Shown here: piece after piece, positions 28,069 to 32,597 of the stretch
How the letters are laid out: each line of letters starts with the position of its first letter
Numbering within the stretch: the stretch's first letter is position 1
Translations under genes and position numbers: made by a program
Source: Eledone cirrhosa
Taxonomy: Eukaryota
Assembly: GCA_964016885.1 (NCBI GenBank)
Contig: OZ024747.1
Span: 80,600,001 to 80,664,000 of the forward strand
Direction of reading: 5' to 3'
DNA: 64,000 nucleotides
The notes under the pieces: generated by a model
What the model was told of the DNA's origin: nothing
Databases searched by the model: none
Seen by the model: only the letters and a program-made list of their open reading frames with translations

Positions 28069-28255
28069 GTTATTCCGGGTTGAATCGGAGGTAACCACAG
28101 TAAGTAAGGTACTCAATACATAGCAGAGTATAACAGTTTTAATATAGATGAGATTCTACAGGACTAGAACTGTTTCATTCATTAGAAATCATCAGGATTC
28201 CTGATGATTTCTAATGAATGAAACAGTTCTAGTCCTGTAGAATCTCATCTATATA
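28069..28255. mobile_element. HHR fold-back element; outer element of the nested cluster
   Basis: perfect palindrome 28142-28255 centred on 28198; 28069-28098 is the exact rc of 31055-31084. Confidence 0.88.
28196..28244 (+). ncRNA. type I hammerhead ribozyme, canonical core
   Basis: GATTC-CTGATGA-tTTC taat GAAt-GAAA-CAG ttctagtc CTG-TA-GAATC; predicted GUA cleavage after 28239. Confidence 0.9.
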
Positions 28256-28272
28256 TATATATATATATATAT

Positions 28273-28452
28273 AACAAAGGAATTGTGGTAGGGAATCAGA
28301 TGGACAATAACGCACCAGAGTACTCAATACTTAGGGTAGTAGAGTGGGAAATAGCAAAAAAGTATGACCCCGACGGCAGAGCTCAAGGCGTTTCGACGGC
28401 TATTAGCTGTCGAAACGGCTTGAGCTCTGCCGTCGAGGTCATACTTTTTCCT
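28273..28452. mobile_element. family B fold-back with two head-to-head 3' half-HHRs
   Basis: IR 28357-28402 / 28404-28449; GAAAC-GGC ttgagctct GCC-GTC. Confidence 0.85.
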
Positions 28453-28531
28453 ATATATATATATATATATATATATATATATATATTAATTCAAAATATT
28501 AACAAAATAGATATTCTTGTGATCAAGTATA

Positions 28532-28597
28532 TTTTATTATACATATTTCAGAGGTACTGAGTTAACTTCAACAGTACGTCCTCATCAGATAAAATAA
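28532..28597 (-). ncRNA. minimal type I hammerhead ribozyme (mirror copy)
   Basis: reverse complement of 28968-29035. Confidence 0.88.
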
Positions 28598-28967
28598 GAT
28601 GATGCATGACATACCCTGACATAGTAGATGGTTAAGATTCAGTAATGGTAGTGAGTAATATATGACAAAACTCAATATTTATATACCTTAATATTGAGAA
28701 CATGAGAAAAATATATAATACATACAATAGAGAGGGTGCGTGTGAGACAGCTTAAAAAATATTTGGCATCAATATAACTTCAATGAGTTATATTGATGCC
28801 AAATATTTTTTAAGCTGTCTCACACGCACCCTCTCTATTGTATATTTTATATACTTTTCTCATGTTCTCAATATTAAGGTATATAAATATTGAGTTTTGT
28901 CATATATTACTCACTACCATGACTGAATCTTAACTATCCACTATATCAGGGTATGTCATGCATCATC

Positions 28968-29035
28968 TTATTTTATCTGATGAGGACGTACTGTTGAAGT
29001 TAACTCAGTACCTCTGAAATATGTATAATAAAAAA
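28968..29035 (+). ncRNA. minimal type I hammerhead ribozyme
   Basis: TTTTAT-CTGATGA-GGAcGTACTG..CAGTACcTCT-GAAA-T atgt A-TA-ATAAAA; predicted AUA cleavage after 29027. Confidence 0.88.
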
Positions 29036-29187
29036 TACTTGATCACAAGAATATCTATTTTGTTAATATTTTGAATTAATATTAATAACTCAGGAAAACC
29101 ATATCAGTTGAGTGCTTCCAATCTATTGTAAAACTCATTCTTTGATGTATTCATTGAACCTTGTTTAACTTTTAAATATATATATAT

Positions 29188-30143
29188 ATGAGTTGTGAAA
29201 AAAAAAATGAAAACGAAATTTCATTTCTTACTTAAATGTAAGTATGTATGTATACGTACATACATATATGTATACTGACGTACAGTAGCATGCATATATA
29301 TATATATATATATATATATATATATATATATATATATATATATATATATATATATATATATATATACATATACATATATACATACAGGTACACATACATA
29401 TATGTACGCATCAGTTTAGCGGACGCTTATTATAGCGCCCGCTTTGTTCATTTGTAAATAAACTGAACAGCCTGAATTTATGCCGCACGGTGTTAAGGCA
29501 ACCACGTCACCTTTTTGTTCAACACTGGCACAGGAACGATGTACTAGTTTCAAGCTTGTTAGCTATCATCAGCACCGTATACCCATCTGCCAGATAGTTG
29601 AACGTTCGAAAGTATATACTTTCCTTATGAAAATTAACGGCTGAGCCAGTGCCAGTGTTGAACAAAAAGGTGACGTGGTTGCCTTAACACCATGCGGCAT
29701 AAATTCAGGCTGTTCAGTTTATTTACAAACGAACAAAGCGGGCGCTATAATAAGCGTCCGCTAAACTGATGCGTACATATATGTATGTGTACCTGTATGT
29801 ATATATGTATATGTATATATATATATATATATATATATATATATATATATATATATATATATATATATATATATATATATATATATGCATGCTACTGTAC
29901 TTCTGTATACATATATGTATGTACGTATACATACATACTTACATTTAAGTAAGTGCCGTACTAAGAGTAAGAAATGAAATTTCGTTTTCATTTTTTTTTT
30001 TACAACTCATCGTTTTCGGTGCGCCTGACCGATTTAACTCACTCGATATGCAAATTAGGCTGCTCAGCCGTTAATTTTCATAAGGAAAGTATATACTTTC
30101 GAACGTTCAACTATCTGGCAGATGGGTATACGGTGCTGATGAT
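29188..30143. mobile_element. complex double fold-back element (family F)
   Basis: IR1 29188-29531 / 29649-30010, including an internal (TA)n in both arms; IR2 29565-29646 / 30062-30143. Confidence 0.9.
29536..29578 (-). ncRNA. minimal type I hammerhead ribozyme, canonical core
   Basis: ACGGTG-CTGATGA-tAGCT aaca AGCTt-GAAA-CTAG-TA-CATCGT; palindromic stem III ACTAGT. Confidence 0.92.
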
Positions 30144-30192
30144 AAGCTGACAGAGCTCTGTTTCGTACTTTTTGGTACATATCAAAGCTCAC
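30142..30192 (-). ncRNA. hammerhead ribozyme, core variant (TTGATAT)
   Basis: GTGAGCT-TTGATAT-GTAC caaaaa GTAC-GAAA-CAG agct CTG-TC-AGCTTAT. Confidence 0.75.
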
Positions 30193-30327
30193 TACTCCTC
30201 CCGTTTGCTGAAAATAATGTGTGTTGGATTCTTATAGAATTCCAGTAATAATCAGGAACTGATTATACAGAGTGGTCGCCGGTTCAGCAGAAATTGAAAA
30301 TTAGGATTGGTACTCTGAAATAGCGAT

Positions 30328-30683
30328 ATATATATGAATGTATATACAGTGTATTTTGCAATACACTGTATGCTTAATTAAAAGCTTTTTGAAGACCTTA
30401 CGTTATTGTTTTAAAGTAGTGACAATGTCACTTACTTAAGTTTTCAGCAAACAGGAGGAGATAAGCTGACAGAGCTCTGTTTCGGCAAACTGGAGGAGTA
30501 GTGATCTTTGATCAGTACCAAAAAGTACGAAACAGAGCTCTGTCAGCTTATCCCCACCCGTTTGCTGAAAATGTAAGTCAGTGACATTGTCACTACTTTA
30601 AATCAATAGCGTATGGTCTTCAAAATGCTTTTAATTAAGCATACAGTGTATTGCAAAATACACTATATATACATTCATATATA
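30328..30683. mobile_element. fold-back element family G
   Basis: IR 30328-30484 / 30528-30683 with diverged arms. Confidence 0.85.
30501..30551 (+). ncRNA. hammerhead ribozyme, core variant (TTGATCA)
   Basis: GTGATCT-TTGATCA-GTAC caaaaa GTAC-GAAA-CAG agct CTG-TC-AGCTTAT. Confidence 0.72.
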
Positions 30684-30731
30684 TATATATATATATATAT
30701 ATATATATATATATATGTGTGTACATATATA

Positions 30732-30886
30732 TGTAGGAGGTGAGTTTTATTGTAGTACAATAAAGCAATGCAGATATCGGATATGAAGCACTCTACAGTT
30801 TGTAGGACTGGAGTATACATAATATATAAGAACAAAAGATGGTTAAAAGAGTTCCATGTATTTTATTATGCGCATTTCATTCTTAT
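30732..30886 (-). mobile_element. (TA)n-embedded element truncated inside its HHR
   Basis: minus strand starts ..GAAA-TGCGCA-TA-ATAAAA; its 3' end CTACAATAAAACTCACCTCCTACA recurs at 1861-1884. Confidence 0.65.
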
Positions 30887-32597
30887 ATATTATGTACATA
30901 TATATATATATATATATGTATATATATATATATATATATATATATGTATATATATATATATATATATATATATATATATATATATATATATATATATATA
31001 TATATATATATATATATATATATATATATATATATATATATATATATTAATATAGTGGTTACCTCCGATTCAACCCGGAATAACTTACATATATATATAT
31101 ATATATATATATGATACTTAATTGAAATTTGATTTTCATCAGTCAGTTGTCTTACATATGATATAAACCCTGTGTGCATAATATATTAATTATTCAATTT
31201 CGTTCCAAAGTTAAGATTATTATTTGTTTATATCGTTACATCCATAGACAGAAATACACACAGACACATATGTGTGTGTGTATTTGTGGTGCGTGCGTGC
31301 GTGGGAGATCGTGCTCTCTTGCGTGTCTACAAATTTCCTGTTAAACAGTTCATTTATAATATAAACGTGAAACTTATTGATAATGATATAAACAATTCAA
31401 AATATAAATTCTATTCATTCGATTATAGATCTCCCTTTACTACAGCTATTTATATTATCTGAATTTGATTATGACCACCACACTGTATTCTTTTAGAGAG
31501 AAGTAAAATTGTTATGATATCAGATACATTTGACCAGGAATGACATTCACCGCGTAGTCGTAGCCTTCATTGTGTGGTAATAGCAATCACGTTTTGTATT
31601 TCTCTCATAATGAGGAGATCTAACAATGCTTGCCAGTTGTTTAAATATTGTGGACTATTTCTAGAATTTGTTTTGTTGAGACAGGCACCAGGATGGTAAC
31701 TACTTTTCTAATATTAATCGAATCGGTATTTAAATACTTCTATGATTATATAATTTCGCGTATGAATTTGTTGACTATTCCGTATTGGATGAAATAAGTA
31801 TGATTATGTTTCATTGGAGAATGATAGAAATATGATATTTTATTATATTATATCATATCAAAATAGCACAAATATATTATATCAAAGTAACACAGTATGT
31901 AGAGCGATAAATATCATAAAAATTCCTATATGGAAGGGAAAACCCGAATGATTGTGGAACGACCTTACAGTGTTTTCTAATCACTTTCCCCAGTTTTAAT
32001 TTTGTTCTTCACAACTAAAACATATGTCAAAAGAAATGTATAATCAACGAGGATGAGACAGGCATGGAGATTACTTACGTTAAACACTAAAGCCTTGTGC
32101 TGATGAGACTGGTAATATAATAGCCATCAGGACACAGTGAGAAATAAAAGAATTAAAATGATGTTGCGATAATAATTGACACTTAAGTCCTTTATCTGTT
32201 TTATTTCTACAAAAGAAAAACTATAGAGCGAACTAAAACGAAAAGAAAAAGATACGAAAGCAGACAACCTACTCTATTATTTTGTTACAGGGATATTTCC
32301 CCTATGGTGCTTTTATTAGCAACTTCATTTTAATCACTTTTTCAAGAGGCCTCGTGTGTTGTGTGTGAATCGAAATAGAAACCAAGCTTATTTTCAACAT
32401 TGAAGAAAAATAAATACATAGACGAATAAATATAAAATAGCAATAATAATGGAAACTAAGAAACTAAGCTTAATTTCCAAATTAAACAAAATAAATAAAT
32501 ACACATGATGATGATGATGATGATGATGATGATGATGATGATGATGATGATGATGATGATGTTGATGATGATGATAATAATAATAATAATAATAATA

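Follow-up and report, generated by a model that had tools for sequence, protein, structure and literature searches.

A row of short head-to-head repeats with hammerhead-like folds joined to (TA)n in the Eledone cirrhosa genome

A stretch of 64,000 nucleotides of the Eledone cirrhosa genome (GenBank assembly GCA_964016885.1, contig OZ024747.1; coordinates 80,600,001 to 80,664,000, forward strand), referred to here as the window and numbered from its first base, was analysed. The region at 28069–31084 was found to be a series of six short repeats of head-to-head form with hammerhead-like folds (elements A, B, C, F, G and H) and one 30-bp end piece (A'), all joined to (TA)n. It is likely that this cluster arose via repeated insertion of the RNA ends of Penelope-type retroelements into a single TA microsatellite. 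The insertion architecture is already known, and the cluster is an unusually dense and clear example of it. The features of the cluster, from left to right, are the following.

28028–28067: (TA)n tract of 40 bp, left flank.
28069–28197, minus strand: long arm of element A, in which the RNA sense runs leftward through a hammerhead fold and then ~88 nt to the outer end; it includes a GAGTRC box at 28114 and the left 30-mer at 28069–28098.
28196–28254, plus strand: short arm of element A, with a type I hammerhead whose core is at 28201 and whose cut is predicted after 28239; the arm ends in TATAT.
28250–28273: (TA)n tract of 24 bp between A and B.
28274–28451: element B, long arm 28274–28404 and short arm 28405–28451, each of which has a hammerhead reduced to its 3' half; related copies lie at 9520–9609, 11874–12024, 15559–15707 and 55879–55999.
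28452–28486: (TA)n tract of 35 bp between B and C.
28487–29175: element C, with two 293-bp arms that show 8 differences and flank a centre of 6 nt, and canonical hammerheads at 28588 (minus strand) and 28977 (plus strand); tail at 29079–29175 with a GAGTRC box at 29110.
29190–30144: element F, left arm 29190–29646 (hammerhead core at 29572, minus strand) and right arm 29646–30144.
29294–29366: 73-bp (TA)n tract inside the left arm of F.
29814–29886: 73-bp (TA)n tract inside the right arm of F.
30141–30676: element G, fused to F without (TA)n; left arm 30141–30484, holding a 319-nt unit between two predicted cut sites with one full fold (core UUGAUAU at 30185, minus strand) and one 3' half; right arm 30485–30676, with a fold of core UUGAUCA.
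30733–30878, minus strand: long arm of element H, which has a GAGTRC box at 30793 and a hammerhead reduced to its 3' half.
30879–30897: short arm of element H, ~18 bp.
30898–31047: interrupted (TA)n of ~150 bp.
31043–31054, plus strand: TATATTAA followed by TATA, an 8-nt match to the expected continuation of the A short arm; this 12-mer is unique in the window.
31055–31088, plus strand: A', which consists of the 30 bp at the outer end of family A and a TTAC and borders (TA)n at 31089–31112.

Read in the direction of the hammerhead RNA, all of the elements are outward-pointing pairs of arms that are truncated at the 5' side in or near the ribozyme and have their 3' ends on (TA)n. Self-comparison of the sequence recovered the fold-backs B, C, F and G and the truncated element H that had been reported in a first-pass annotation of this DNA. 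The repeated insertion at (TA)n proposed there is likewise well supported, as each free element end in the cluster adjoins TA. However, the elements are not each separated by (TA)n, since F and G are directly joined and the two 73-bp tracts lie inside the F arms. AT or TA overlaps are found at the element ends, and target-site duplications are unreadable inside (TA)n.

Elements A, B, C and H each consist of one long and one short arm, the extra tail of the long arm being ~80–95 nt. The B copies at 15559–15707 and 11874–12024 are also long-plus-short, and the copy at 55879–55999 is short-plus-short. The GAGTRC box is common to the long ends of A, B, C and H, where it lies 40–59 nt before (TA)n. 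The window holds 38 occurrences of the 7-letter pattern of this box, and in 11 of these TA follows no more than 110 nt downstream, so that the box is a candidate motif. Neither the GAGTRC box nor multi-family hammerhead clusters in (TA)n were found described in the literature searched, though subscription journals, Repbase or supplements may hold a description.

The short arm of B is identical at 41 of 41 positions to the copy at 15667–15707, yet 4 of 41 columns differ when it is compared with its own long arm. As the short arm is closer to another locus than to its partner, the sequences fit an origin of the two B arms from separate templates. The right arm of F passes the start of the left arm and runs into the upstream sequence of the next unit, including the 5' half of a hammerhead (30136, plus strand); because it extends to sequence lying upstream of its own hammerhead, the implied unit is head-to-tail and 528 nt long. 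The 73-bp (TA)n tracts of F are flanked by degenerate repeats in both arms and are equal in length, yet 6 of 272 positions and an 18-bp indel distinguish the arms, and gene conversion or smoothing of the assembly or consensus is a possible cause. The junction of F and G (30141–30144) is a GATA overlap within a longer similar stretch and includes no (TA)n. It is likely a microhomology deletion or a template switch, because neither end resembles a normal outer end.

Hammerheads were sought using our own descriptor of the type I fold, built on the core motifs of the family. The canonical descriptor found seven folds in the window, of which four are in the cluster (28201 and 28977 on the plus strand, 28588 and 29572 on the minus strand), and one additional cluster fold was found with a relaxed core (30185, minus strand). 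When the 2599 non-TA bases of the cluster were shuffled 200 times preserving dinucleotides, the maximum was 1 fold (mean 0.005 canonical, 0.035 relaxed). As palindromes count each family twice, the independent canonical folds of the cluster number three (A, C and F). Two near-complete folds fail the descriptor, one at 28195 on the minus strand (A-A mismatch in stem I) and the other the plus-strand fold of G with core UUGAUCA, and hammerhead halves were seen in B (two), F, G and H. The six full-length hammerheads or variants counted earlier are therefore within the range of five to seven, but four are canonical, one is relaxed and two more fail the descriptor; the several halves also claimed were confirmed. 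For A, the descriptor gave a GUA cut site with a 4-bp stem III and a 6-bp stem I, which replaced an assignment of the cut site as GUC with a broken stem I. Outside the cluster, three canonical type I folds were found at 15341 and 36930 (plus strand) and 54474 (minus strand), each in an element ending at (TA)n.

The wider distribution of family A was examined by aligning sequencing reads to the A long arm only (28068–28199) at 80% likeness, using four of 13 candidate runs, namely X1, X4 and X5, which consist of contigs, and X11, which consists of raw reads; X5 is from another organism label. Solo 30-bp pieces of the family may be too short to align. Family A was found in 10,369 of 16,285,364 contigs (X1), 382 of 762,587 (X4) and 31 of 8,254,286 (X5), and in 7,120 of 12,467,656 raw reads (X11). 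The family is thus abundant and high-copy, and a rough estimate, which assumes that the restriction-site-associated DNA (RAD) reads are a random sample and the genome is 1–3 Gb, is ~1,900–5,800 copies. The 64-kb window contains no other copy of the family.

Loose (TA)n ends immediately before 28070 were present in 99 contigs (X1) and 489 reads (X11), and the 30-mer is therefore the usual end of family A; independent insertions of such a common family end were what the first-pass annotation had named as refuting its own reading. The consensus at these ends fits the first bases of the TTAC extension of A', and TTAC partly fits the commonest end of the family. A second common end lies at 28135, with loose (TA)n ends in 433 reads (X11) and 1 contig (X5) and none among the X1 and X4 matches listed. 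This position is 7 nt outside the short-arm stop of the present copy and 4 nt outside the end of TATATTAA. Three contigs spanning 28068–28199 carry 11–20 other letters and are therefore other copies. In the X11 reads, four loop II positions vary in 18–71% and the listed core and stem positions in 5–8%. A variable loop II with conserved core and stems is the pattern expected of a conserved fold.

At least 11 different opposite-strand joints were found in family A, the frequent partner being 28197, the position where the family departs from the reference, and the fold-back centres therefore vary between copies. A joint from 28197 back to 28139 with 18–19 letters between, seen in 72 reads with 17 starts (X11), corresponds to tandem units of 77–78 nt. 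The inverted ends and TA flanks could also be those of miniature inverted-repeat transposable elements (MITEs) or foldback DNA transposons with terminal inverted repeats. However, the arms are unequal, the distance between hammerhead and end is fixed, tandem units are present in F and G, and the variable centres in the family A reads largely refute this reading, making it extremely unlikely.

Joining of repeats from different loci via their (TA)n tracts during assembly would produce a similar row. The window includes a 200-N scaffold gap (12542–12741), the best runs, three of one sample that is perhaps the source sample, contain only 0.56–0.58 of the sampled words of 28068–31800, and the equal tracts in the otherwise differing arms of F suggest consensus smoothing or gene conversion. 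However, the arms differ by substitutions and indels as real copies do, and smaller similar clusters are present at several other sites in the window (near 6.7–7.6, 9.4–9.7, 15.3–15.7, 54.2–54.7 and 55.9–56.2 kb), so that an assembly artefact is very unlikely.

The origin preferred here, repeated Penelope-type insertion into one TA microsatellite, has to be set against several results that weigh against it. No open reading frame for a telomerase-like reverse transcriptase with a GIY-YIG endonuclease is present in the cluster, nor was one recognised, judging by eye, among the 45 stop-to-stop frames of at least 120 aa in the window. The cluster pieces can therefore only be non-autonomous or truncated, and both the mobiliser of the elements and their order of insertion are putative. 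An Rfam scan of the whole window called no hammerhead family and gave only microRNA-like hairpin noise; in the cluster, three HH9 matches scored 18.1, 18.8 and 20 bits against a gathering threshold of 52, with none for A or C. The constrained hammerhead fold of A (-5.3 kcal/mol) is 2 kcal/mol less stable than the free minimum (-7.3 kcal/mol). The tails of ~80–95 nt exceed the 30–40 bp published for Penelope/Poseidon and Neptune. The read data describe family A rather than the cluster junctions, and the depth step in X11 is ~570 reads at 28135, the modal short end of the family, versus ~80 at the observed short-arm stop. With no coding partner recognised, the cluster pieces are classed as working like an endonuclease-bearing Penelope-like element and as candidate members of a named clade.

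The relationship of A and A' bears on whether the insertions are nested. As claimed in the first-pass annotation, 28069–28098 and 31055–31084 are exact reverse complements, and the match extends zero bases further inward or outward. The right arm of A equals the left arm up to CTCATCTATAT (~28254), with 0 of 54 differences between the short and long arms, and TATATTAA then TATA stand directly before the far 30-mer. The break of the right arm near 28255 and the resumption near 31043 described earlier are thus both there, but 40 bp of the left arm between the two matches (28099–28138) have no counterpart on the right. A copy of the left 30-mer inverted at the DNA level was considered and rejected, as several bases distinguish the outer junctions and the one on the right fits the usual family end.

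It is slightly more likely than not that A, TATATTAA-TATA and A' represent one insertion, and that B to H accumulated later at its internal TATAT. One-level nesting of this kind is plausible because TATATTAA is rare at the ends of TA tracts, occurring at 2 of 282 in the window, the other instance being the end of C itself. The 12-mer is unique in the window, A' is in the correct orientation and the outermost position with 30 of 30 bases identical and no further family A copy in the 64 kb, and insertion of one Penelope into another is on record in the available part of PMC3846280. On this reading, A, TATATTAATATA and the 30-mer would be contiguous where B to H are absent. However, the 40-bp skip is required, the outer junctions of A and A' are not the same, and the divergence of the arms runs in the wrong direction. 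The first-pass annotation had proposed comparing arm divergence with nesting order; if the oldest element were outermost, its arms should be the most diverged, whereas the A arms are the least diverged (0 of 84 differences versus 29 of 849 for B, C, F and G pooled; Fisher p = 0.06). This pool includes B as 4 of 46 and excludes the second G comparison, which is poorly bounded, and H, which is too short. Arm divergence is also a weak clock, because the short arm of B shows fewer differences from another locus (0 of 41) than from the long arm it is paired with (4 of 41).

The break in A itself needs no nested insertion, as the long/short asymmetry is normal in B, C, H and the B copies and a recurrent end of family A lies 4–7 nt away. 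A could therefore be a complete long-plus-short element (28069–28254) and A' a separate, very short insertion of a common family end, a tentative and rather unlikely alternative. It agrees with the 30-mer being the usual end of family A, with a probability of a random copy matching at the seven listed variable sites of 0.10–0.37 (X11 reads) or 0.48–0.72 (X1 depths), with a family H end of 30 bp that stands alone in a TA tract (1854–1883; 29 of 30 identical) and with the 41-bp B arm that is identical at two separate loci. De novo Penelope-like insertions in an alga have a median of 128 bp (PMC9977147, in the part available). However, independent insertion leaves TATATTAA, found at <1% of tract ends, to chance, and calls for another insertion, at the far edge and in matching orientation, of a family otherwise absent from the window. 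Addition of A and A' late and by a single event, with two nicks separated by 3 kb and placed in TA tracts flanking an older cluster, would jointly account for the identity, the orientation and the undiverged A arms. It would still require the 40-bp skip, has no direct evidence or precedent in the literature examined, and is improbable.

Deeper nesting, in which every element was inserted inside its predecessor in the manner of a Russian doll, had been proposed in the first-pass annotation. Only the A bracket and the F right arm, which is cut off by G, point that way. None of the inner elements encloses another, and no remainder of B, C, F, G or H resumes past a neighbour, so multi-level nesting is unsupported; furthermore, B, C and H are complete long-plus-short units and the (TA)n tracts of F are part of its repeated unit. 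A true Russian doll is thus quite improbable, and the cluster is likely a pile-up that follows a mostly known pattern.

The following mechanism is proposed for that pile-up. A Penelope-type endonuclease/reverse transcriptase encoded elsewhere would nick both strands of (TA)n. Priming of cDNA synthesis by each nick, aided by AT/TA pairing, would begin at one or the other of two internal start sites located 3' of the hammerhead, so that a tailed long arm and a tailless short arm result. Both cDNAs would stop early, usually in or near the ribozyme, and would be joined there to form the fold-back. Because (TA)n would be kept at every junction, the tract would remain a target and later elements would settle next to those already there. 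F (528 nt) and G (319 nt) are probably retrozyme-like tandem units that were moved by the same machinery. A and A' are marginally more likely than not to stem from one event, the first of the later insertions having landed in the TATAT at the tip of the A short arm, which amounts to a single level of nesting.

The abundance of (TA)n, which the first-pass annotation suggested could stem from a self-reinforcing loop of insertion and (TA)n expansion, was also considered. In the window, 25 of the 71 TA tracts of at least 20 bp touch or lie in one of 23 hand-listed elements (among them palindromes and a tandem unit without a recognised hammerhead), and this overlap is predicted by targeting alone. 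Perfect non-TA microsatellites occupy 2629 bp of the window and TA 4063 bp, hence the genome is generally rich in simple repeats. F is the only direct sign of an element that carries long (TA)n. A closed loop can be envisaged, in which many families target (TA)n, F, as a retrozyme-like unit, copies the 73-bp (TA)n within its RNA to new sites, the new tracts act as landing pads, nests grow inside the first element, the GAGTRC box is a cis signal that positions the start of reverse transcription, and the two-template arms are in vivo footprints of priming on both strands; taken as a whole, this is doubtful. If F does spread target-competent (TA)n, it would offer a testable cause for part of the microsatellite load in such genomes. 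If genome-wide copies confirm the two starts, the shared box and the two-template arms, the mechanism known for Penelope in vitro would become testable on a large natural data set. The cluster further suggests that many short palindromes classed as "unknown" or MITE-like in (TA)n-rich invertebrate genomes are stumps of hammerhead-bearing retroelements.

Other repeats were observed in the window. A 615-bp tandem unit is present at 16231–21555 (~8.7 copies) and 51626–52789 (~1.9 copies), with the same start base and (TA)n on both sides; the units differ by 0–1 base within the first array and by ~1% between arrays, and no canonical hammerhead was found in them. These arrays look like a young (TA)n-targeted tandem insertion without a ribozyme. 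At ~6856–7056, a short interspersed element (SINE), presumably of the tRNA type, is inserted in a hammerhead element resembling family C, with a ~20-bp duplication on both sides that includes the first core box of the hammerhead, and this is a clear nested insertion. The SINE and the repeat composition would fit a cephalopod. A perfect 390-bp palindrome at 7207–7596 ends in (TA)n, and a related single arm at 56019–56207 lies beside the B copy at 55879–55999. A perfect 92-bp inverted repeat (47483–47574 and 48527–48618) surrounds ~950 bp that include a 120-bp (TA)n tract, with no hammerhead seen. Imperfect palindromes at 48742–48881 and 50235–50805 have one end on (TA)n, and the descriptor finds no canonical hammerhead in them. 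Broken reading frames at 61124–62250 (plus strand) and 22740–23495 (minus strand) resemble C-terminal parts of retrotransposons that lack long terminal repeats (non-LTR), of the restriction-like endonuclease type and the L1/Tx1 type, respectively.

The cluster was compared with known systems, the comparison extending, for all sources except PMC11167929, to the part of each that was available. Penelope-like insertions are described as inverted, 5'-truncated copies with a 30–40-bp tail at one end and a bias for microsatellites, which is for (TA)n in Naiads and is also attributed to Neptune (PMC8557442). Palindromes at inverted junctions and joins at microhomology are likewise reported in PMC3846280, very short de novo insertions into a microsatellite target are known from the alga (PMC9977147), and octopus has 31 recently active Penelope-like families, the available main text making no mention of hammerheads (PMC13282606). 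In vitro, Penelope cuts and extends both strands of AT-rich targets from two adjacent internal start sites, and cutting by the ribozyme is unnecessary for insertion (PMC11167929). The cut site at +26 and the starts at +111 to +118 are 85–92 nt apart (PMC11167929), compared with ~88 nt in A and ~98 nt in B. The cluster resembles Penelope/Poseidon and Neptune in its head-to-head truncated arms, the extension at one end only (A, B, C and H), the two start sites 3' of a type I hammerhead and the AT-rich or (TA)n targets, and perhaps in microhomology at junctions. It differs in that there is no coding sequence, both arms are tiny and at least six families share one microsatellite.

Minimal hammerheads of metazoan Penelope-like elements occur as pairs 100–700 bp apart on opposite strands and include a U3-A8 core (PMC4209133). 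Opposite-strand pairs within that distance, a short or palindromic stem III and an unpaired base before stem II are shared with the cluster, as is a U3-A8-type core in G, though its two cores each deviate at one position, probably through decay. A and B differ in having a 4–5-bp stem III with a longer loop. Like the non-LTR retrozymes as defined in PMC7229834 and bioRxiv 10.64898/2026.07.22.740005, F (528 nt) and G (319 nt) consist of head-to-tail units with type I hammerheads at their boundaries, and the 77–78-nt tandem joint in the family A reads is a further likeness. Unlike them, F and G lack two complete consecutive hammerheads; in each, a complete fold and a half fold lie on the same strand, separated by 528 nt in F and 319 nt in G. 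Both also take the form of inverted pairs, and a long microsatellite lies inside F. Finally, the long interspersed elements (LINEs) CR1-L3 and Rex of snakes seed microsatellites (PMC6050309), and F is similar in that the element carries a simple repeat, 73 bp of (TA)n in each arm. In F, however, which represents one locus only, the repeat is internal and is also the insertion target, so that a loop would be closed.

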